Source of the DNA: an uncultured delta proteobacterium
Lineage (GTDB): Bacteria > Desulfobacterota > Binatia > Binatales > Binataceae
Assembly: GCA_963842085.1 (NCBI GenBank)
Contig: CAWJET010000001.1
Span: 2,400,001 to 2,464,000, forward strand
Reading direction: 5' to 3'
Length of the DNA stretch: 64,000 nt
Part shown: positions 14,932 to 28,511 of the stretch, piece after piece
Numbering within the stretch: the first letter of the stretch is position 1
Layout of the letters: each line of letters starts with the position of its first letter
Notes under the pieces: generated by a model
Database searches by the model: none
What the model saw: only the letters and a program-made list of their open reading frames with translations
What the model was told of the DNA's origin: nothing
Program-made: the position numbers and the translations under genes

Positions 14932-17592
14932 CTAGTGCACCAGAGACGCGACTTTGGACAGGGCTTCGTCGAGCTTCGAGGCGTCGCGGCCGCCGGCCTG
15001 GGCCAGGTCGGGGCGGCCGCCGCCGGTGCCGCCGACGATCGGCGCGATATTCTTGATGATGTCGCCGGCTTTGATTTGCGCCGTCAGGTCAGGCGTCACT
15101 GCGACCAGCAGCGCGACCTTGCCGTCGCCGAGGTCGGAGCCGAGAGCGACCACGGCAGAGCCGTGCTTCTGGCGCATCCGATCCGCCATCTCGCGCATGG
15201 TGCGCGGATCGACGCCGTCGAGCTTGCGCGTCACGATCTTTACGCCGCCGGCCTCGCGCACTTGTTCCTCGGCCGCCGCGCCGCCGGCGCCTGCGGCGAG
15301 CTTTTGTTCCATCGCGCGCAGCTTCTTCTCCAGCTCTTTTTCGCGCGCTAGCAGTTTTTCCAGCCGCTCGACTGCGGCGCCGTCGCGCGCGCCGAGCTGC
15401 GCGCCAATCTCTTCGAGGATTCTCTCGCGCTTGCGAATCGTTTCGAGCGCGCCTTGTCCCGTCACCGCTTCGATTCTCCTCACTCCCGCAGCGACTCCCG
15501 ATTCCGCTTCGAGTTTGAACATCCCGACGTCGCCGGTACGCGAGATGTGCGTGCCGCCGCATAGCTCGACCGAAAAATCGCCCATCCTGACGACGCGTAC
15601 GCGGTCGCCGTACTTGTCGCCGAAAAATGCGAGCGCGCCGGCCTTGATCGCGTCGTCGTAGGCCATTTCCTCGACCGTCACTTCGGCGTTCTCCCGGATG
15701 CGCGCGTTGATCTCTTCCTCGATGGTCGCCAGCGCGTCGTCCTTGACCGGCCCCTGATGCGCGAAGTCGAAGCGCAGCTTGTCGGGATCGACCAGCGAGC
15801 CCGCCTGATGCACCGAACTACCCAGCACGTCGCGCAATGCGTAGTGCAGGATGTGTGTCGCGGAATGATTGAGCATCGCGGCGTCGCGCCTGAGACGGTC
15901 AATTTTGAGTTTGACGCGCGCGCCGCGTGCGAAGTCGCCGGCCTCGCCACGCAGAATTCGCCCCAGGTGAACGATAGAGCCTTCAGCCTTGCGCGTGTCC
16001 GACACTTCGAGAATCGCGCCCGACGCGGTCTCGATCACGCCGCGATCGCCGACCTGCCCGCCGCCCTCGGGATAGAAGGGAGTCTCCGCGACGACGACCG
16101 CTACGTGCTCGGCGTCCTTGCCGCCGGCCGCGAGCACTTCGGACTCGCCCTCGTAGCGGTGATAGCCGACGAAGCGCGAGGCAGTCCCGGTGCCGAGGCT
16201 GATCTCCGGTGCGACGGCGTCATCTTTGCGGGCAGCGCGTCCGCGCTCCTTCTGCTCGTCCATCAGCCGGTTGAAGCCGGCGACATCGACCGTGAAACCG
16301 TCCTCGCGAAGAATGTCCTCCGTTAGGTCAAGTGGGAAGCCGTAGGTGTCGTAGAGCTTGAAGGCTGCTTCAGCGGAAAGCGCATGATGCCCAAGAACTC
16401 GCAACTGCTTACGCGCGCCGTCCAGCAACGAAAGCCCACGGTCAAGCGTCTCCGAGAATCGTCGCTCTTCCAGATCGACCTGTTCGCCGATCCTGATACC
16501 CTCTATACGGAGCTCTGGGTAAAAAGAACCCATGGTTTCGACGACTCGGCCGCATACACCCTCCAAGAAGGGCTCGTGAATTCCCAATCGGCGTCCGTGT
16601 CGGACAGCGCGACGGATTATTCTCCGCAGCACGTATTCGCGATCCGTATTGCCGGGAACAATACCCTCGGCAAGCAAAAAACTTATTGCGCGAGCGTGGT
16701 CCGCTATAGCTCGGAAAGAAACGTCGGTGTCGGCGCTTTGCCCATATCGTGCGCGATTGCCAACAACTCGCGCGGCTTCCTGGATATTAGAGATAATGTC
16801 CCGGAACAGATCAATTTCGTAGTTGCCGAGGATCCTGCCTGTCTCGATGCTCTGCAGGGCCGCCGCAATGCGCTCGAGCCCTGAGCCGGTATCGACGTGC
16901 TTCTTCGGCAGCGGAGTCAGCGCGCCCGACGCGTCGCGGTTGTACTGGATGAAAACCAGGTTGGCGATCTCGATGAAGCGCTCGCATCCGTCGACGTTCA
17001 CAAAACATTTCTGCCCCGGATGATTTCTTTCAGGCTGGCATGCGGCTTCGCCGCGGTCGATGCTGATTTCCGAGTTCGGGCCGCTCGGCCCCGTCTCGGC
17101 CATCTCCCAGAAATTATCCTTGTCGCCGAATTGCAGAATCCGCTCGCGCGGCAGCACTCCCATCTTCAGCCAGATGTCCTCGGACTCCTTGTCGTCCTTG
17201 TGGACCGTCGCGTAGAGCAGCTTTGGATCGATTTCCCAGACCTTGGTGATCAGCTCCCAATGCCACCGAATCGCTTCTTCCTTGTAATAGTCGCCAAAAG
17301 ACCAGTTGCCGAGCATCTCGAAAAAAGTGTGATGGTAAGTGTCGCGGCCGACCGCTTCGAGATCGTTATGCTTGCCCGATATGCGCAGGCATTTCTGACA
17401 ATCTGCGACGCGCACGTGCTGAGGAGAGCGCACGCCCAGGAAATAATCCTTGAACTGCACCATCCCGGCGTTGGTGAAGAGGAGCGTGGGGTCGCCCTTG
17501 GGAATCAGCGGCGCCGACGGCACGATCGTATGACCGCGCTCGGCGAAGAAATCGAGAAACGATTGGCGGATTTTTGCAGTAGTCCAGCGCAT
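14932..17592 (-). CDS. alaS: alanine--tRNA ligase
   Basis: DPTLLFTNAGM, HHTFFEMLGN, YDTYGFP, HSATH, ELCGGTH, GGGRPDLAQAGG. Confidence 0.98.
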   Translation of the reverse strand: MRWTTAKIRQSFLDFFAERGHTIVPSAPLIPKGDPTLLFTNAGMVQFKDYFLGVRSPQHVRVADCQKCLRISGKHNDLEAVGRDTYHHTFFEMLGNWSFGDYYKEEAIRWHWELITKVWEIDPKLLYATVHKDDKESEDIWLKMGVLPRERILQFGDKDNFWEMAETGPSGPNSEISIDRGEAACQPERNHPGQKCFVNVDGCERFIEIANLVFIQYNRDASGALTPLPKKHVDTGSGLERIAAALQSIETGRILGNYEIDLFRDIISNIQEAARVVGNRARYGQSADTDVSFRAIADHARAISFLLAEGIVPGNTDREYVLRRIIRRAVRHGRRLGIHEPFLEGVCGRVVETMGSFYPELRIEGIRIGEQVDLEERRFSETLDRGLSLLDGARKQLRVLGHHALSAEAAFKLYDTYGFPLDLTEDILREDGFTVDVAGFNRLMDEQKERGRAARKDDAVAPEISLGTGTASRFVGYHRYEGESEVLAAGGKDAEHVAVVVAETPFYPEGGGQVGDRGVIETASGAILEVSDTRKAEGSIVHLGRILRGEAGDFARGARVKLKIDRLRRDAAMLNHSATHILHYALRDVLGSSVHQAGSLVDPDKLRFDFAHQGPVKDDALATIEEEINARIRENAEVTVEEMAYDDAIKAGALAFFGDKYGDRVRVVRMGDFSVELCGGTHISRTGDVGMFKLEAESGVAAGVRRIEAVTGQGALETIRKRERILEEIGAQLGARDGAAVERLEKLLAREKELEKKLRAMEQKLAAGAGGAAAEEQVREAGGVKIVTRKLDGVDPRTMREMADRMRQKHGSAVVALGSDLGDGKVALLVAVTPDLTAQIKAGDIIKNIAPIVGGTGGGRPDLAQAGGRDASKLDEALSKVASLVH

Positions 17593-17601
17593 CAAGATCT
17601 G

Positions 17602-17631
17602 ATTGTAGCCGGGGAAGGGTAAATCACTCAA
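17602..17631 (-). promoter_or_regulatory. putative sigma70 promoter of alaS (near-leaderless transcript)
   Basis: TTGAGT-N18-TACAAT ends 9 nt before the ATG; no SD visible. Confidence 0.5.
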
Positions 17632-17772: not shown

Positions 17773-18753
17773 ATGGACATCACTATCGACGCGCCCACCG
17801 GCACCCGGGAGAAGTTCTCCTTCACCGATTTTTTTCTTTCTCATAAAGGCGATCTGACGCTCGCTTTTTCGGCCTTGGTGTATCTCGTGAGCCTCGCCGC
17901 CCTGATGTTCACGCGTTGGCGGAGCTCGTCCGAGATTGCGGTCTCGATGGCGGAGGCGGCGCTGATCGGCGGCCTGTGCGATTACATCGCGCTCAAGATG
18001 ATCTTCGAGCGGCGATGGTACCTGCCCAACTCCGGCGTGCTGCCGCGCAATCGGGTCAAGCTGATCGACGGAATCGCCGCCACGATAGAGAACGAATGGC
18101 TCACGCCTCAGATGATCGGGCGCAAGCTCGGCGAGATGGATCTCGTCGGACGCCTCGGCACGTATCTGCAGGAGCTGAAGTTGAACGATGTGCTGGGGCA
18201 GGCCGGGCTCGAGCGAATAATCAGCCAGGCCATCGATTACCTCGATTCACCCGAGAAACGCGAGCGCCTTGAAAAAGTCCTCAAGCGGATGCTGCCGAAG
18301 ACGGTCACGCGAATCTACGCGGTGATGAGCCGGTTCGGCGCGGAGTCGATCGGCGCGCGGATCGCGGCTAACTTGCGCAAGCGGCTGCCCGAGCTGCAGA
18401 ACGATCCCGAGCTGCGTGACACGATCGAAAGCGCGATTCACGAGTTCGGGGCTCAACTTCACGATCCCGAGAGCTACGCGAATCAATTTGCGCAGCGATT
18501 GATAGACAACCTGGTGCGCAGGACGGTCGAAGCAAGCCGCGGGCAGATCACGCAGATGGTGCGGGAGAACCTGGCGCGGCTGTCCGACGATCAGATCAGG
18601 ATTCAGATTGAATCGAAGACGCGCACGCATCTGGACTGGATTCGCGTCAACGGCGGCCTGTTCGGCGCGTTCTTCGGCCTGCTGTTCGCGCTATCGCGAA
18701 TCCTGTCGCACAACGGCCCCGCAATCCTCGCGCATTTTCACATCGCGATGTGA
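17773..18753 (+). CDS. DUF445-family membrane protein
   Basis: AEAALIGGLCDYIAL, GVLPRNR, HLDWIRVNGGLFG. Confidence 0.85.
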   Translation: MDITIDAPTGTREKFSFTDFFLSHKGDLTLAFSALVYLVSLAALMFTRWRSSSEIAVSMAEAALIGGLCDYIALKMIFERRWYLPNSGVLPRNRVKLIDGIAATIENEWLTPQMIGRKLGEMDLVGRLGTYLQELKLNDVLGQAGLERIISQAIDYLDSPEKRERLEKVLKRMLPKTVTRIYAVMSRFGAESIGARIAANLRKRLPELQNDPELRDTIESAIHEFGAQLHDPESYANQFAQRLIDNLVRRTVEASRGQITQMVRENLARLSDDQIRIQIESKTRTHLDWIRVNGGLFGAFFGLLFALSRILSHNGPAILAHFHIAM

Positions 18754-18768
18754 GCGGAACTAATCGTA

Positions 18769-18832
18769 GTGAAACCCCACCTGGGTTTCACACTTCCTTG
18801 GGCAGGGGTGACCCCTGCACCCGGTGTTAAAA
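18769..18832 (+). repeat. palindromic repeat family B, copy 2 (short form)
   Basis: GTGAAACCC-cacct-GGGTTTCAC, ACTTCCTTGG, GCAGGGG-TGA-CCCCTGCACCCGGTGTTAAAA. Confidence 0.85.
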
Positions 18833-18886
18833 GAAAGATGCCGGACTTCGTCCCTGTTAGAACTTATTGCGGGATGTCGTCAGACG

Positions 18887-19957
18887 TCAGCCTTTTTTCT
18901 TTGGCGATTGCGCCGGCGGCTGTTCCGGCTCCTCGATTGCCGCGTCGGCCGGCAGCGCGACCGGCCTGGCCGCGAGCTTCTCACGCACCTTGGTTTCGAT
19001 CTCGTCGGCCAGCTTCGGATTCGCCTTGAGCAAGTCGCGCGCGTTCTCTCGTCCCTGCCCGATCCGCTCGCCGTTGTACGAGTACCAGGCGCCAAGCTTC
19101 TCGATGATACCGTGCTCGCTCGCCAGATCGACCAGCTCGCCTTCCTTCGAGATCCCGGTGCCGTACAGGATGTCGAACTCGGCCTCGCGAAACGGCGGCG
19201 CGACCTTGTTCTTCACCACTTTGACCTTGGTGCGGGAGCCGATCACCTCGGTCGCGTTCTTGATCGTGCCGATGCGCCGGATGTCGATTCGCACCGACGA
19301 ATAAAACTTCAGCGCGTTACCGCCGGTGGTCGTTTCCGGATTCCCGAACATCACGCCAATCTTCATCCGGATCTGGTTGATGAAGATCACGATGGTGCGC
19401 GAGCGTGAGATGATCGACGTCAGCTTGCGCAGCGCCTGCGACATCAGGCGCGCCTGCAGGCCCATCTGCGGCTCGCCCATCTCGCCTTCGATTTCCGCGC
19501 GCGGCACCAGCGCCGCCACCGAGTCGATGACCAGCACGTCGATTGCGCCCGACTGCACCAGAGTCTCCGTGATCTCGAGTGCCTGCTCGCCGTTGTCCGG
19601 CTGCGAGATGAGCAGGTCCTCGACCTTGACGCCGAGCTTGCGCGCGTAGGCGGCGTCGAGCGCGTGTTCCGCGTCGATAAAGGCGCACGTGCCGCCCATC
19701 TTCTGCGCTTCCGCGATAACTTCCAGCGCCAGCGTCGTCTTGCCCGACGATTCCGGGCCGTAGATTTCGACCACGCGCCCGCGCGGCAATCCGCCCACGC
19801 CCAGCGCGATGTCGAGTCCGAGCGAGCCGGTCGGCACGACAGCGATATCGGCCGAAATCGCCTGCTCGCCGAGCTTCATGATCGAGCCCTTGCCGAACTG
19901 TTTCTCGATTTGGCTGAGCGCCAGGTCGAGCGCCTTACTTTTGATCTCTATCGCCAT
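18887..19957 (-). CDS. recA: recombinase A
   Basis: [40 protein letters not shown]. Confidence 0.99.
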
Positions 19958-20111
19958 CGCTTGTGCTCACATGAGATTTGTTAATCGCGGTGCGAATCTT
20001 GCCACAAACTCGCCTCGATAGCTCTATCCGCGCCGGGGCTCGTGTCCACAGGGCTGTTGAGAAGACGCACGGGTGTTACGAAAAGAACAAAAAGACGGCG
20101 CTGCCGCAGTG

Positions 20112-20753
20112 CTAGCGCGACTGGAATAGAAATGTCGCGAGCGCTTCGTAGCTGGCGCCGTCGGGCCCGAGATGGCTGCGATAGAGCGTGATCGATTCGA
20201 TCTTCGAGACGCCGAACTCGCGGTCCCGCGCCGCATGCAACGCCTCGCGAGTTTTGCCCGCAATCGGCTTGTCGTTAAGCCGTCCGATAGTCAGATGCCC
20301 GCTCCAGCGCCGCTTCTCGCGCTCGAATCCGTAGTCTGCCGCTACAGTCTCCAATCGCGCGGCCAGCGCGGCGAGCACGCCTGATTCGACACTGTGCAAT
20401 CCCACCCAAATCGCGCGCGGATGCTCGAGGCCGGGAAATGCGCCGACTCCCGCGGCCGCGACCTCGAACGGCGCGGTCTTCATCGCGAGCTGACGAAGCC
20501 CTGCGGTGAGCCGCTGCAGTCGATGCGAATCCACGGCCGGCCCAAGAAACTTGAGCGTGATATGCAGATTTGCCCGCGGTACCCATCGCACGCCGTCTCC
20601 CGGATGCCGCAACTCGTCGAGGGTCTTCGCCACCGACTCCTCGACCTGCTCGCTCATCCGGATTGCGACGAACGCGCGCACTCCTTTGGCTTCGCGATCT
20701 CCGAGGTCGTCGCGCGGGTCCGTTCGTGCCTGACTTTCCGCCCAATGTGTCAT
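20112..20753 (-). CDS. thpR: RNA 2',3'-cyclic phosphodiesterase (2H family)
   Basis: RAFVAI, HITLKF and HLTIGR (two HxT motifs); sits upstream of recA. Start uncertain. Confidence 0.9.
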   Translation of the reverse strand: MTHWAESQARTDPRDDLGDREAKGVRAFVAIRMSEQVEESVAKTLDELRHPGDGVRWVPRANLHITLKFLGPAVDSHRLQRLTAGLRQLAMKTAPFEVAAAGVGAFPGLEHPRAIWVGLHSVESGVLAALAARLETVAADYGFEREKRRWSGHLTIGRLNDKPIAGKTREALHAARDREFGVSKIESITLYRSHLGPDGASYEALATFLFQSR

Positions 20754-23311: not shown

Positions 23312-24943
23312 TTATCTCCTTCCGATCCACTCGCCCGCCATCACGCCATCGCCGCACCACTTCCCGTCCGCGACCACCGCGGTTCCATTGACCATCACGT
23401 GCTCGATTCCGACCGGCGTCACCGTCGGCGTTTGCGCATCGGCGGCGCAGCCGATCGTATCCGGATTGAATATCACCAGGTCCGCTGCGTAGCCCGGACG
23501 CACCAGGCCGCGCCCGCCGAGCCGCATCCGCTCCGCCGCCATGCCCGTCGCCTTGTGCACCGCGTCTTCGAGCGTCAGCAGTTTCAACTCGCGCACGTAA
23601 TGCCCCAGGATTCGCGGGTAGGTGCCGAAGCTCGCGGGATTGTGATGCCCATGCGAGGTCAGGATCGTGTCCATTTCGAACATGTTCAGCGGATGTTTCA
23701 TCGCCTCCCGCAGCGCATGCTCGTCGCCGAAGTCGTCGCCGCTGTATAGATGGTTCAGCACGCGCGCCCGCGTCCCGCTCTCACGCGTAATCGTCAGGTA
23801 CGCGTCGATCGGATCGAGTTTCAGCTCATCGGCGATCTGCCCGAAGAACTTGCCCTCGAGATGACTGAGTTCGGGCTTGACCGCCCACATGAGCTGAACC
23901 GAGTCGGCAATAAACGGCCGGAGCGGCTCGAATCCGTCGCGCAATTTCTTCCATTCTTCCGGTGACTCGAGCAGACCTTCGAGTCCGGTCTGCGCCCAAG
24001 CGGGAAAAATAACCCGAATCGTCGTGTTGCCGCAGGTGTAGGGGAAAGTGTCGAACGCGATATCGACGCCGTCGCTTTTGTGACGCTCGACTTCGGCGAT
24101 CGTGTCTTCGACCGTCGCCCAGGTCTGCGGGCCAACAAAAATCAGATGCGAGACTTGCAGCGGTACGTCCGCCTCGCGCGCGACGTTGGCCATCTCGCGC
24201 ACGGCCAGGATGTTGTGTGGAACCACCCTGGTGTCGAAGAACAACGAGCGCACCGAGTATGCGCGCAGATGCGAGGTCAACACGCCGCCCGCCGCTGCCG
24301 CCACGCGAGCCAGCGCCGCCAGCTCGGCCGGCTTCGCGATCATTCCGGGAAAATAGCCGAGCCCACACGACAGTCCGACCGCGCCATCGGCCATTGCCCG
24401 CTCGACCATCGCCTGCATCGCGCGCAACTGCTCCGCCGACGGCTCGCGCGCGTCCGAACCCATCACGCTCAAGCGAATGCTGCCGTGGCCCGCCAGATGC
24501 GCGACGTTGAGCGCGAGTCCGCGGCGCTTCAGATAGGCGGCGAAGCCCGCCACGTCGTCCCATTCCCAATCGAACGTCCGCTCGGCGCATAGCCGTCCCG
24601 ACTCGTCGAGCATCCGCCGCCGCTCGCGCATAACAGGCGCTACCGAGAAGCCGCAATTGCCGCCGACAAACGTCGTCACGCCTTGCAGCAGAAACGGTTT
24701 AAGGATTTGCCCGTGCTCGGCCATCGGCAGGACCCAGTCGGAATGCGAATGCATATCGATGAAGCCCGGCGCCACTGCGAGGCCGCTCGCATCGATCTCA
24801 TGCGCGGCGAACGCGCTGGCGACGTCACCCGGATCGATCAGCGCGGCTATTTTGCGGTCCTTGATCGCGACGTCGGCGCGAAAGCGCGGCGCGCCGCTGC
24901 CATCGACCACGATGCCATTACGAACGACTACGTCATATTCCAT
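23312..24943 (-). CDS. N-acyl-D-amino-acid deacylase / amidohydrolase
   Basis: DGSG, PGFIDMHSHSD, GNCG, GTYPRILG, GYAADLVIF. Confidence 0.9.
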   Translation of the reverse strand: MEYDVVVRNGIVVDGSGAPRFRADVAIKDRKIAALIDPGDVASAFAAHEIDASGLAVAPGFIDMHSHSDWVLPMAEHGQILKPFLLQGVTTFVGGNCGFSVAPVMRERRRMLDESGRLCAERTFDWEWDDVAGFAAYLKRRGLALNVAHLAGHGSIRLSVMGSDAREPSAEQLRAMQAMVERAMADGAVGLSCGLGYFPGMIAKPAELAALARVAAAAGGVLTSHLRAYSVRSLFFDTRVVPHNILAVREMANVAREADVPLQVSHLIFVGPQTWATVEDTIAEVERHKSDGVDIAFDTFPYTCGNTTIRVIFPAWAQTGLEGLLESPEEWKKLRDGFEPLRPFIADSVQLMWAVKPELSHLEGKFFGQIADELKLDPIDAYLTITRESGTRARVLNHLYSGDDFGDEHALREAMKHPLNMFEMDTILTSHGHHNPASFGTYPRILGHYVRELKLLTLEDAVHKATGMAAERMRLGGRGLVRPGYAADLVIFNPDTIGCAADAQTPTVTPVGIEHVMVNGTAVVADGKWCGDGVMAGEWIGRR

Positions 24944-24999
24944 GAACGCGATTATTCGCGCCTGGCAACACTCAGCGCAAACGTGCGCTCCCGCCCTTT

Positions 25000-26301
25000 T
25001 TACGCTCTGATCAAGCCATCGACGTGGCCGCTGGAGCGCGGGCGTCCCGGGAATACTCGATCGATCTGCGCGTCTGAAAACTGCATGTGCGAGCGCAGCA
25101 CCGTCGCGATCGGCTCGCGAAAGTCGGTGGTCACCGCCAGGTCGCGCTCCTGGTAAAGGCTCCCCGGTGAAAGGCCCGGCCACTTGCCGTAAACCTTGCC
25201 GCCTTTCACCGGCCCGCCCATCACCCACATGACGTTGCCGTGCCCGTGATCGGTGCCGCCGTTGCCGTTTTCATGCATCGTGCGCCCGAACTCCGAGATC
25301 ACCAGAATGACGGTTTCCTGATAGTTTGGCCCGAGCTGACTGGCGAAGCTTGCCAGCCCCTCGCCGAGCGGCTTGAGATGGCCCGCGAGCTGGCCGTTGG
25401 CCGCGCCTTCGCTGACGTGCGTGTCCCAGCCGCCGAGCGCCATGAACGCGACTCGAATCGTGGGATCGCGGCCGATCAGGCGCGCCAGCCTGTCCGTGTC
25501 GTCGGAGAATCCATTGGGCGAGGGCGCTCCGGCATCGGCCTCCGTCATATCCTGCTTCAGTTCGCTCATCAGCCGCATGCGTGCCTGGCGTCCATCGCGA
25601 TACGCGCGGCTGATTGAATCGCTGCCGGTGTACATCCGATCGAATGCCGCTTCGATCACCGGTCGGTCCATCGGCATCGGCCGCTCCGCCGCTCGCCCAA
25701 GCGCGATATTCGCGACCGGCATCCTGCCGCTCAGAATCCGCGGCACCGTCGGGCCGAGACTGAGCGCTTCGGTCGGGCTATGCGTCCCCGGAATTACTCC
25801 GAGCGTCCGATTCAGCCATCCGTCCTGCGTTGACTTGACGCCGGGCGTGCCGCTCTCCATGAAATCCTGCGCGTCGAAATGCGATCGCGTCGGATCCGGC
25901 GAACCGCAGGCATGCACGAACGCCAGCGTGCCATCTCGCCATTGGCGCTCCATCGGCGCGAGCGCAGGATGCAGACCGAAATAGCCGTCGAGATCGACCA
26001 GCCCGTCGCTCGCGCCCATGCGCCCGATCGCGATTGTCGGGCGCGCATCGTAGTACGCCGGCTCGCCATGCGGTACCACCACGTTCAGGCCGTCAACCGC
26101 GCCGCGCAGGAAAACCACGATCAGCCTGCCCTTGCTACTTGAGTCGAGCGAACGCGCCGCCCACGCATTTGGGCTCAGCAGCACGATGCCCGACGCCGAC
26201 AGAAGAGCCGCGCGCCGCAAAAACGCCCGCCGGCTGAGCGAAGTTGCGAGTGCCGGACTGCACTCCGTACACGCGTTATTTTCCTGAAGAAATTTTTCCA
26301 T
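25000..26301 (-). CDS. DUF1501 protein with Tat signal
   Basis: SRRAFL, LRGAVDGL, TRSHFDAQD, GGWDTH, SEFGR, GTDHG. Confidence 0.9.
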   Translation of the reverse strand: MEKFLQENNACTECSPALATSLSRRAFLRRAALLSASGIVLLSPNAWAARSLDSSSKGRLIVVFLRGAVDGLNVVVPHGEPAYYDARPTIAIGRMGASDGLVDLDGYFGLHPALAPMERQWRDGTLAFVHACGSPDPTRSHFDAQDFMESGTPGVKSTQDGWLNRTLGVIPGTHSPTEALSLGPTVPRILSGRMPVANIALGRAAERPMPMDRPVIEAAFDRMYTGSDSISRAYRDGRQARMRLMSELKQDMTEADAGAPSPNGFSDDTDRLARLIGRDPTIRVAFMALGGWDTHVSEGAANGQLAGHLKPLGEGLASFASQLGPNYQETVILVISEFGRTMHENGNGGTDHGHGNVMWVMGGPVKGGKVYGKWPGLSPGSLYQERDLAVTTDFREPIATVLRSHMQFSDAQIDRVFPGRPRSSGHVDGLIRA

Positions 26302-26310
26302 CGTAAGCTC

Positions 26311-28029
26311 TCAGCGCTTCATGAACTCGGGACTGCCGAGTATCAGCGGCGCGCGCAGTTGCGTTGGCGACGCCTCCACAGCGTTGGCCGTCGCGGTTGA
26401 AAAATAATCGCCAAGCGTCGCCGCGAGCTGCGCGGGATCGGGCGGCGTCATCTTCGGTCCGCGTGGCCCGGGGTCGAACTTGATATTCACTTTGCCGACG
26501 CCATTTTTCAGGACTGCCGCCGGCTCGCGCCGTCTCTCGCCAGCGGCCGCGTCTTCTTCGAACGGCGGATTTTCCAGCGGCAGATTCCCCGAGCCCAGCG
26601 CGGTCGCGAAGCTGAGCCGCGTCATCATCGCGTCCGGATTCAGCCACGCAACCTGCGTGTTGGCGTAGCCGTTGGGCGTTTGACATGCATACAGCGGCAT
26701 CCCAAGAATCTGCATCGTGCCGTACAGCGGCCGGTAATTGCGCACCGGCACGCCGGTCGCGCGCACGCACGAAACCACGTACTCGTAAGGCGTTTTGAAC
26801 TTGGCGCCGTAGTAGCGCGGGTCCCAGAATTCCGCGCTCGTGAACATCGTCTCGAGCACCGCGCGAGTCTCGCCGTCGCTGGCCAGGTAGCGCTGCGCCA
26901 TCCGCTGCACCAGCGCTTTGGGTGGATCGTCGGCGACGAAGTATTGCGCCAGCTTGAAGCTGAGATGCTTCGCTGTGGCGGGACTGCGCGCCAGGATGTC
27001 AAGCGCATGCTCGCCTTCCGCCATTCCGCCGCCCTCGATCTGGCGGCCCAGAAAAGTTTTTTCAGAAAAGTCGTGGCGCGAGGCGTCGAAATAAAATCCG
27101 CTCGGGTCCGCCGGCCGAATGAGGTTTTGCCGGCGTTGCATCATCATTCGCCGCATCGGAAAAAATCCGCCCATTTCGGCGCCCGGCATGCCTTCGACGC
27201 CGGGCCTGCGATTCCCACCGCCACCGCCGTTGCCCTTGGGCAGTCCCCATCCGGTCAGAATATGCGCGAGCGCGATTACGTCGGCTTGATGGTAGCCGCC
27301 GTTGACGCCCAGCGTATGCAGCTCCATCAGCTCGCGCGCGTAGTTCTCGTTTATTCCCTCGAACCTGCCCTTCGAGCCGGGGCTGCCAGGCGCGGTGTTC
27401 AGCCAGTTGTCGAGGTAGAAGAGCATCGCCGGATGATGCGCCGTCGCGCCCAGCAGCGTGCGGAACTTGCCGAACGTATGCGGCCGAATCGCAGTTTCCT
27501 CGAACGCACCCGTCCAGATCAGGTCGAGGCCTTTGCCGGCGAAAACATTGAAGTGGTTGAACCAGAACGCGGTCATCACTTCCTGCAACTGACGCGGCCC
27601 TGCGATCGCGCGCAACATCCGGGCCTCGACCGCCTCGCGCATCACGACGCGCTGCCGGATTCGCGCGTCCTTGGTCGCGTCTTTTATCGCCGACTTGTCG
27701 CCACCGCTCGCGGCCTTGGCTTCCCGGCGCGCCTGCATGATCGGCCGCTGATATTCCATGAACAGCGCGAGCGGCGACATGTGCAGCGTGCGATATTCGC
27801 TCACGCGCTTGATCAGGTCGCCGGGAATCGCAATCGACTCGGGGTGCAACTGCTCCTGCACGTAGCGTTCGGGTCCAATCGCGCTGACCCGCTCGAAGTC
27901 GCCGGGCCGCGGCCCGAACGCGAGCCGGTTAAGCACGTGCAGTGTCCGGTCTCGCTTTGATTCTTCGCTCGATTCCAGCACGGCTGTATCTCGTCTATCT
28001 AGTACGAACCCGCCAGCCAGCGGATTCAC
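26311..28029 (-). CDS. DUF1800 protein (start uncertain)
   Basis: LNRLAFG, FWFNHFNV, PAMLFYLDN, NENYARELMELHTLG, LGSPEF. Confidence 0.88.
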   Translation of the reverse strand: MNPLAGGFVLDRRDTAVLESSEESKRDRTLHVLNRLAFGPRPGDFERVSAIGPERYVQEQLHPESIAIPGDLIKRVSEYRTLHMSPLALFMEYQRPIMQARREAKAASGGDKSAIKDATKDARIRQRVVMREAVEARMLRAIAGPRQLQEVMTAFWFNHFNVFAGKGLDLIWTGAFEETAIRPHTFGKFRTLLGATAHHPAMLFYLDNWLNTAPGSPGSKGRFEGINENYARELMELHTLGVNGGYHQADVIALAHILTGWGLPKGNGGGGGNRRPGVEGMPGAEMGGFFPMRRMMMQRRQNLIRPADPSGFYFDASRHDFSEKTFLGRQIEGGGMAEGEHALDILARSPATAKHLSFKLAQYFVADDPPKALVQRMAQRYLASDGETRAVLETMFTSAEFWDPRYYGAKFKTPYEYVVSCVRATGVPVRNYRPLYGTMQILGMPLYACQTPNGYANTQVAWLNPDAMMTRLSFATALGSGNLPLENPPFEEDAAAGERRREPAAVLKNGVGKVNIKFDPGPRGPKMTPPDPAQLAATLGDYFSTATANAVEASPTQLRAPLILGSPEFMKR

Positions 28030-28058
28030 ACTATTAGACGTAGCCGGAGCCGCCCCGT

Positions 28059-28511
28059 TTACCTGGACGCGCGCCCCCATGCCTCGATCAGCCGCTCGAA
28101 TGCCTTCCGCAGCTCGGGATCCTTCAACTCCGGCAGCTCGATCGATTTCCGCGCAGCCCGCGCCACCGTGCGCAATTTCGGCTTTAGTTGCTCGCGCCGG
28201 CTTAGTCGCCCCTGCACGAATCGCAGCTCGCGCACGACGTCGTCGCCCAGCCGCTCTTGCACGCGCGTCAGAATTTGCGACTTCATCAGGTTCAGTTCTT
28301 GTATCCACATCGCGCCCGACACTTTCACGACCGCGGTGTGGAATTTCAGCGAGACGATTTCCGTGCGCCGCGCGATCGTCTCGCCGACGATCTCCGGCCA
28401 TGCTTTCGCCAGCCGCACGATCGCGAAATGACCTTCGCGGTCGATCCGATCGAGCAGCGGCTGCATCGCCGCGCCGATCTGTTCTGGAGCCTTATGGCGT
28501 CGCGTCGGCAT
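28059..28511 (-). CDS. dciA: DciA/DUF721 helicase-loader family protein
   Basis: WPEIVGETIARRT, WIQELNLMKSQIL, VRELRF pattern. Confidence 0.8.
   Translation of the reverse strand: MPTRRHKAPEQIGAAMQPLLDRIDREGHFAIVRLAKAWPEIVGETIARRTEIVSLKFHTAVVKVSGAMWIQELNLMKSQILTRVQERLGDDVVRELRFVQGRLSRREQLKPKLRTVARAARKSIELPELKDPELRKAFERLIEAWGRASR

Follow-up and report, generated by a model that had tools for sequence, protein, structure and literature searches.

The window analysed here is a 64,000-nucleotide stretch of the genome of an uncultured delta proteobacterium of the family Binataceae (GenBank assembly GCA_963842085.1, contig CAWJET010000001.1, positions 2,400,001 to 2,464,000), and it carries alaS, the gene for alanine–tRNA ligase (AlaRS). 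As a marker, AlaRS is generally assumed to be conservative and inherited vertically, with four domains in a fixed arrangement. In this alaS an internal patch differs from the rest of the gene in codon usage, for which an initial annotation had proposed either targeted local hypermutation under purifying selection or repeated recombination at the level of a domain. We compared the gene with its relatives and consider it very likely that it is a mosaic, in which an internal segment was imported by homologous recombination from a deeply divergent Binataceae allele. Below, Q is the query, that is, the alaS or AlaRS of this genome; L-numbers are loci in relatives' genomes and P-numbers are relatives' proteins.

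14932..17592, minus strand: alaS (alanine–tRNA ligase), 886 amino acids from the ATG at 17592, a start common to homologues
16288..16803, minus strand: proposed imported (recombinant) tract, codons 264-435, delimited by breakpoint fits, low third-position GC, saturated synonymous sites and discordant phylogeny

Results

The alaS open reading frame (ORF), counted from an upstream in-frame TTG, spans 14932-17631; homologues begin at MRWTT, so the ATG at 17592 was taken as the start. The Pfam layout is the usual one for AlaRS (tRNA-synt_2c 7-566, tRNA_SAD 665-708 and DHHA1 784-885), and the setting is an ordinary chromosomal one, with phoH and ybeY downstream and a DUF445 gene and recA upstream. 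The nearest proteins are from Candidatus Binatus or Binataceae (74-87% identity), together with a 99% identical partial protein from a separate record, and the host is, judged from sequence, a Candidatus Binatus species. For the comparisons, a genome-collection scan of species-representative genomes was used, in which the best 80 of 588 confirmed matches gave 75 distinct loci; these were built into a codon alignment anchored on Q. Residue conservation was read from 52 aligned Binataceae AlaRS proteins of 848-933 amino acids.

Within 16321-16800, 70 of the 160 codons that lie wholly inside end in A or T, exactly as the initial annotation had counted by hand, against 150 of 726 in the remainder of alaS (Fisher p = 5e-9). 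The patch has a GC content at third codon positions (GC3) of 0.56, compared with 0.79 over the rest of the gene; GC3 drops to 0.45-0.60 in the patch, while first and second positions stay level. The two halves of the tract have GC3 of 0.53 and 0.62, compared with 0.72-0.85 in six other alaS segments, and the codons enriched in the tract over the rest of the gene include CGA (9 vs 1), CTT (7 vs 0), ATA (4 vs 1) and GTT (5 vs 2). Against a background of 6,993 windows of 160 codons from 28 coding-like ORFs of the 64 kb (mean 0.79, s.d. 0.075), the alaS minimum of 0.556 is the second lowest value and the lowest that is truly in frame. A lower GC3 at the 5' end of a DUF1800 ORF proved to be a wrong reading frame and not a second patch.

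The annotated reading frame is intact, and the motifs ADHARA, YVLRRIIRRA and YDTYGFP are present as described. GNTDREY, which had been taken as a sign of divergence, is instead the consensus of all Binatus and Binataceae AlaRS proteins (PGNTDREYVLRRIIRRA).

The divergent tract (16288-16803, 516 bp) is slightly wider than the 16321-16800 patch. Maximum-likelihood two-breakpoint fits against the congeneric loci L007, L003 and L001 place it at codons 264 to 434/438, with log-likelihood gains (dLL) of 97-124, and nucleotide divergence from these loci is 0.40-0.42 within the tract and 0.11-0.12 outside it. Amino-acid identity between Q and Binatus congeners is 0.90-0.94 in the flanks and 0.56-0.61 (about 59%) in the tract. 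A combination of flank identity of at least 0.88 with tract identity of at most 0.61 occurs in 31 pairs, all involving Q or L011; the remaining pairs with flank identity of at least 0.88 have tract identities of 0.82-0.97. Across 8.7 kb of conserved synteny the sole coding drop in nucleotide identity is at 16264-16845 (0.50-0.68 vs 0.83-0.97), and L011 drops in the same windows against L007, its 97% relative.

Synonymous sites take part in this step. By the Nei-Gojobori method, the proportion of synonymous differences (pS) is 0.70-0.82 in the tract, that is, saturated, and 0.33-0.36 in the flanks; nonsynonymous divergence (dN) is 0.36-0.38 and 0.03-0.04, respectively. The tract dN matches that between genera of the family (0.35 for the tract of L007 against L041). 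The ratio of nonsynonymous to synonymous divergence (dN/dS) is 0.12-0.19 where computable, and the tract is under purifying selection. Saturation together with low dN/dS means that positive selection on amino acids alone cannot explain the tract, and divergence at synonymous sites leaves either foreign DNA or a locally raised mutation rate. The breakpoints are abrupt, with a step in divergence that includes synonymous sites, as in recombinant mosaic genes.

The tract is fixed in the species as far as it is represented. P0002, from a separate NCBI record and another assembly (a 14.5-kb contig), is identical to Q over residues 1-810, with 0 differences in 160 aligned tract residues, and the exact Q protein occurs on 4 contigs. 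The same holds for the tract of the Ca. Binatus soli type, which shows 0 of 164 differences among proteins that vary at up to 16 flank positions and does not vary at all across proteins that come from several sources and at least 57 contigs. Against the P0037 group the B. soli tract is 93.3% identical and its flanks 94.6%, so it diverges at the same pace as the rest of the protein, and P0005, with flanks 96.9% identical to those of P0024, has a core-type tract at 56.7%. Among close relatives, variation is thus not concentrated in the tract, as it would be in the target of a diversity-generating retroelement. The last 36 residues of P0002 (Q residues 811-846) carry 8 substitutions and a one-residue insertion relative to Q, after which the protein ends; this mismatch reflects either a further junction, within the C-Ala domain, or an error at the end of the contig.

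These observations bear on the possibility of an assembly, polishing or binning chimera, in which the patch would come from another organism in the sample. The lineage is metagenome-derived and several related long-read loci are frameshifted, which lends the idea some plausibility. However, both flanks return to one Binatus background with conserved synteny, the identical tract recurs in the separate record and on the 4 contigs, and the B. soli tract recurs across its contigs and sources. In addition, a segment about 40% divergent, without long k-mers in common with the native one, would offer little basis for a bubble or mis-mapping error. We regard a chimera as exceedingly improbable.

In a search with the tract only, the nearest full-length proteins were P0121 (79%), P0123 (75%), P0122 (74%) and P0124 (73%). 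Flank identity to Q is just 67-76% for P0121, P0123 and P0124, whereas P0122 combines Binatus-like flanks (87-92%) with its 74% tract. Tract identity of Q is 0.57-0.61 to Binatus, 0.61-0.63 to other genera and 0.79 to P0121. The Q tract is hence no nearer to Binatus than to other genera, a pattern not expected of a tract that had diverged in place from the Binatus type.

The trees agree with this. A quick tract tree groups Q with P0121-P0126 (seven rows; starred support 97) and a careful one groups Q with P0121-P0125 (six rows; 83/85), in both cases outside the core Binatus type and with a short end branch for Q (0.17-0.19). The flank tree instead places Q and P0122 in the Binatus clade (starred support 100), P0121 and P0126 with L041 (starred 99) and P0123 with L043 (starred 100). 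Tracts of the Q type thus sit on at least four flank backgrounds. In approximately unbiased (AU) tests on the tract data, a single clade of all 16 Binatus rows was rejected (p = 1.5e-6). Grouping Q with the set of 12 core rows was likewise rejected (p = 0.0025), and so was grouping it with a 16-row core-type clade (p = 3.4e-4). On the flank data, the tract grouping was rejected with a log-likelihood (lnL) difference of 543 (p = 4e-77). The internal segment therefore has a phylogeny significantly unlike that of its flanks, as expected of a recombinant mosaic gene.

Local hypermutation, or accelerated evolution in place, would mean that a native Binatus tract mutated fast and with an AT bias under purifying selection. 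AT-biased mutation would give low GC3, synonymous and nonsynonymous sites are both highly diverged, and several lineages are affected at the same place, all of which such a process could produce. The phylogeny speaks against it: the Q tract lies as far from Binatus as from other genera and nearer to P0121, whose flanks are distant, its end branch is short, and the AU tests reject its placement with the Binatus type. The identical tract in the conspecific P0002 and the even pace of the B. soli tract and its flanks point the same way, and so does the absence of machinery in the window. As the initial annotation had stated, the window holds no template repeat, as matches to the tract elsewhere in the 64 kb are only chance ones of at most 27 nt, and no reverse transcriptase. 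No reverse transcriptase, integrase or transposase was seen in its 68 ORF translations, a near-complete scan that includes some shadow frames. Hypermutation is therefore highly improbable, and the low GC3 is better read as a mark of imported DNA. A diversity-generating retroelement target would share the localized high divergence in a conserved gene and the intact frame. In contrast to such targets, the window lacks a template repeat and a reverse transcriptase, conspecific variation is absent, all codon positions have changed over 516 bp, the gene encodes an essential housekeeping enzyme, and the tract has relatives in other lineages.

A donor closer to home would be an additional alaS copy, whole or partial and of divergent sequence, that lies in this genome or is carried by a mobile element and acts through gene conversion. 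All orphan tracts have lowered GC3, no chromosomal donor was found, and mobile DNA is often low in GC3, which would fit. On the other side, the 64-kb window has no second copy of the tract, and in the tract tree every tract is nested within Binataceae. A tblastn search with the 172-residue tract against phage (26 records) and plasmid (65 records) collections gave matches that were all below 60% identity; these look like ordinary alaS and are so annotated where annotated, most of the listed records being unannotated, and we dismissed a phage or plasmid donor among them. A HMMER search with the tract against 1.84 billion representatives, collapsed at 50% identity, gave a best short match of 265 amino acids at 69% and then matches of at most 60%; many are below full length, with completeness not readable, and none shows a stand-alone domain gene. 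We judge gene conversion from such a copy to be very unlikely.

The exchanged segment begins downstream of the catalytic core. Aligned to AlaRS structures (1RIQ and 3HXU), it corresponds to about residues 252-407 of the A. aeolicus and 276-416 of the E. coli enzyme, so that it spans most of the tRNA-recognition domain, the region to which the initial annotation had assigned the patch. Two residues of that domain are of particular concern here:

16648..16650, minus strand: Asn315 codon, in line with the Asn that reads G3:U70; matches position 302 in the chain of 3HXU (E. coli AlaRS) and, by position arithmetic, about N359 of A. fulgidus
16348..16350, minus strand: Asp415 codon, in YDTYGFP and in line with the Asp that reads G3:U70; chain position 399 of 3HXU

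The E. coli AlaRS equivalents we take to be N303 and D400. In the 52 aligned Binataceae proteins Asp415 is invariant and Asn315 nearly so. According to PMC8887476, N359 and D450 of the tRNA-recognition domain read the G3:U70 pair. Most of the tRNA-recognition domain thus appears to have been exchanged with both G3:U70-reading residues and every invariant residue kept. No tRNA gene, and so no tRNA-Ala for comparison, is present in the 64-kb window. The start of the domain, codons 266-295 (16705-16797), is the least conserved part of AlaRS even among ordinary Binatus, and core Binatus sequences are only 0.51-0.62 identical to one another in 15-codon windows starting at codons 266-281.

The same region has been replaced independently in seven or eight further Binataceae species. 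Against close flank relatives, orphan tracts were found at codons 269-435 in both L011 and L018, 268-408 in L028, 265-499 in L026, 268-556 in L031 and 236-562 in L022; a tract at 272-559 in L032 comes from a frameshifted row and is uncertain. The tracts start at codons 264-272 in all cases except one (236-248), and they end near 408, 435, 499 or 556-562. For the suggestion of repeated domain-level recombination this means that it holds at the level of the family, whereas for Q itself one replacement suffices.

Scanning 38 loci without guidance, each against its nearest neighbours, gave 21 rows with dLL above 30; L032, L033 and L037 were omitted because they lack a full-length ORF or are a fragment. 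Nine of these (Q, L011, L031, L018, L025/L019, L022, L026 and L028) have tracts inside codons 248-561, whereas the other 12, and an upstream extension of the Q fit (codons 165-434 against L015), involve ORF-broken long-read loci. The strong tracts outside codons 248-561 (in L006, L008, L013 and L015-L017) are attributed to frameshift artefacts. Eight loci from long-read metagenome-assembled genomes (MAGs), namely L006, L008, L013, L015, L016, L017, L032 and L033, have no single full-length alaS ORF and look frameshifted, and loci of this kind yield spurious divergent tracts in codon-based scans. L025 and L026 share a tract type over codons ~268-450 (82% protein identity vs 76% in the flanks) and each has nearer flank relatives, which points to another exchange of the same module.

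Two blocks that adjoin the tract are conserved across the codon alignment:

16792..16833, minus strand: 5' junction block, codons 254-267 (ILGNYEIDLFRDII), a likely zone of crossover that is conserved throughout Binataceae
16240..16290, minus strand: 3' junction block, codons 435-451 (D VAGFNRLMDEQKERGR); conserved in the alignment; likely crossover zone

The tracts of Q, L011, L018, L028, L031, L032 and L026 all start at codons 264-272, and those of Q, L011 and L018 all stop at codons 434-438. More generally, the junctions adjoin blocks that are conserved locally. Upstream this is ILGNYDIDLFQxII; downstream it is VAGFNRLMDEQKERGR, YDTYGFP or blocks around codons 500 and 566. The stronger proposal that breakpoints fall at the stretches most conserved in nucleotide sequence was unsupported by the fractions of exact runs, even though local conserved blocks adjoin.

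The dip in GC3 follows the length of the tract. In Q and L011 it is back to 0.78-0.85 in codons 436-500, while in L031, L032 and L022, the tracts of which reach ~556-562, it stays at 0.52-0.63 up to codon 557. Across the 38 loci, with L032, L033 and L037 again omitted, excess tract divergence correlates with the drop in GC3 (Spearman 0.68, n = 38). One lineage of lower GC is known in the family: L041, with a locus GC of 57% and an alaS GC3 of ~0.62. In the flanks it is sister to P0121 and P0126, both of which have tracts of the Q type, and on this ground a lower-GC donor for the Q tract is plausible, although the tract of L041 itself is not of the Q type.

Some further observations concern the wider locus and the sampled genomes. 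An antisense ORF at 16384-16884 was set aside as a shadow frame, given that it uses the same triplets as the alaS codons, like the neighbouring antisense ORFs along the gene; open shadow frames are common in GC-rich genes. The DUF1800 ORF (26311-28401, minus strand) has a 5' part (27952-28401) in which the first 150 codons have GC3 of 0.38-0.50, followed by an abrupt shift to 0.86; in 27952-28401 the coding-like composition sits in another frame of the same strand, with 3 stops. Translation probably begins near 27950; alternatively, the sequence upstream of that contains a frameshift or represents a separate remnant. In an amidohydrolase stop-to-stop ORF (23312-25228, minus strand), GC3 is 0.58 over the first 160 codons, the third-lowest 160-codon window in the scan. 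The recA neighbourhood that precedes the DUF445 gene and alaS in the window, in L007 and in L003 is missing from L011 (Ca. Binatus soli), and the synteny of the L011 locus (1-1815) with window positions 18750-20650 stops at ~18750. L035 is titled a Klebsiella pneumoniae MAG, yet its alaS is Binatia-like (57% to the query, grouping with Binatia outgroups), and L042 and L037 are titled Candidatus Acidiferrales (Acidobacteriota), yet carry Binatus-type alaS at 85-88%. These titles probably reflect binning contamination or mislabelling.

Discussion

We propose that homologous recombination would have replaced the 516-bp segment of codons 264-435 with its homologous counterpart from a Binataceae allele that had diverged deeply, with crossovers in or beside the conserved blocks that bracket it. 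The low GC3 would then be the compositional mark of imported DNA rather than of local mutagenesis. Recurrence in the family would reflect domain modularity, as the segment is the most variable part of AlaRS and is bracketed by conserved blocks, and selection on the tRNA-binding surface may contribute to it.

Several points weigh against this account. The groups for the AU tests with p = 3.4e-4 and p = 4e-77 were picked after the trees had been seen, the tract offers only 180 columns to a tree, and in the careful tree the support for the tract group of Q is moderate (83/85, unstarred) with P0126 lost. No donor was found, the nearest tract among the matches listed being that of P0121 at 79% identity, compared as protein only. 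The initial annotation had named near-identity of the patch among relatives, and a match to one low-GC donor, as observations that would speak against its proposals: the patch is indeed identical in the closest relative, and a single matching donor did not emerge. The junctions pose a further difficulty. When Binatus is paired with distant Binataceae, an exact run of 17 nt or more occurs in 0.00-0.07 of pairs at codons 251-270, 431-440 and 551-560, while this fraction reaches 0.51 elsewhere in alaS. The junctions therefore lie off the longest runs of identity, and crossover at the most conserved spot is not a full account of why they are shared; the viability of chimeras joined at domain boundaries may also shape them. 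Another concerns composition. Every strongly divergent tract is GC3-poor, whereas flank GC3 is 0.72-0.86 in 37 of the 38 loci, so that a random draw of Binataceae donors does not obviously predict low GC3. The 38 loci are also related, and the p-value of the Spearman correlation overstates their independence.

The recurrence could also be driven by selection. As a motive, the initial annotation had suggested that the patch might serve escape from a toxin, phage factor or site-specific nuclease. Divergent domain alleles might be kept and exchanged, for example because they alter sensitivity to an inhibitor, toxin or phage factor that binds the domain, or match tRNA-Ala variants, which would refine homologous import and not exclude it. 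The roughly seven or eight replacements in 38 species-level loci all lie in codons 236-562, with none credible elsewhere in alaS, the junctions are common yet off the strongest recombination anchors, and one tract type occurs on several flank backgrounds. However, a partner that binds the domain is not known, the tract has a low dN/dS, and the region is the least conserved even among ordinary Binatus, so that imports may simply be best tolerated there. We hold selection-driven recurrence to be unlikely.

A bolder form of the idea is that the tRNA-recognition domain of Binataceae AlaRS comes in several allele classes of ancient origin and deep divergence, 'domain-level homeoalleles', which circulate among species under selection on the tRNA-binding surface, for example for escape from a docking inhibitor, toxin or phage factor. 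We offer this as a speculation of low probability. Under it, the low GC3 could conceivably be intrinsic to the alleles. One conceivable route is that rare alleles have diverged too far from the majority type for recombination with it and thereby escape GC-biased conversion; another, equally a matter of conjecture, is that they reside in a low-GC mobile reservoir.

The proposed import has known counterparts. Gene-fragment transfer with breakpoints inside ORFs is common according to Chan et al. 2009 (PMC2817436), and intragenic recombination in Wolbachia argS is reported in PMC7719230. The alaS case resembles both in an internal segment with a phylogeny unlike that of its flanks, in sharp breakpoints and in an intact ORF, and argS in affecting an aminoacyl-tRNA synthetase gene. 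It is unlike them in its divergence, which is at the level of a family (~40% of nucleotides, with saturated synonymous sites), and in that the tract is nearly one structural domain, replaced repeatedly with near-identical 5' junctions and a common low GC3.

Whole-gene synthetase homeoalleles (TyrRS, ThrRS and SerRS), swapped in conserved synteny, are treated by Andam and Gogarten (PMC3191353), who proposed exchange through homologous recombination in conserved flanks. The alaS tracts likewise are divergent forms of the same function within one higher taxon, one per genome, in the same synteny and with a distribution off the organismal tree; functional equivalence would follow from the conserved residues. 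In contrast to those homeoalleles, which as described there are whole genes with crossovers in neighbouring genes, the alaS exchange involves one domain, crossovers inside the ORF and several allele classes rather than two. It covers codons 264-435 only, and up to ~556-562 in some relatives. An insertion such as a homing intein or intron, which could leave a co-conversion tract behind, was not noticed in the 52 aligned proteins of 848-933 amino acids, though no search was aimed at longer forms. In the accessible parts of the literature on alaS mosaicism, homeoalleles, gene-fragment transfer, intragenic recombination in synthetases and recombination in Binatota, we found no account of this alaS pattern. 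The alaS case is a domain-scale counterpart of known exchanges, with several allele classes and repeated replacement at common junctions.

If neutral mosaicism is all that lies behind the exchange, alaS provides a clean illustration of gene-fragment transfer, in which a local drop in GC3 in a core gene marks import and not mutagenesis. If it is general, phylogenies and species delineation that use alaS as a marker would be affected, and the family would offer a natural experiment on viable chimeras of synthetase domains. A testable question would also follow, namely whether the tRNA-recognition domain is the target of something present in soil. Among these closely related soil bacteria, one functional domain of an essential enzyme behaves like an exchangeable cassette, with versions as unlike one another as those of different genera.

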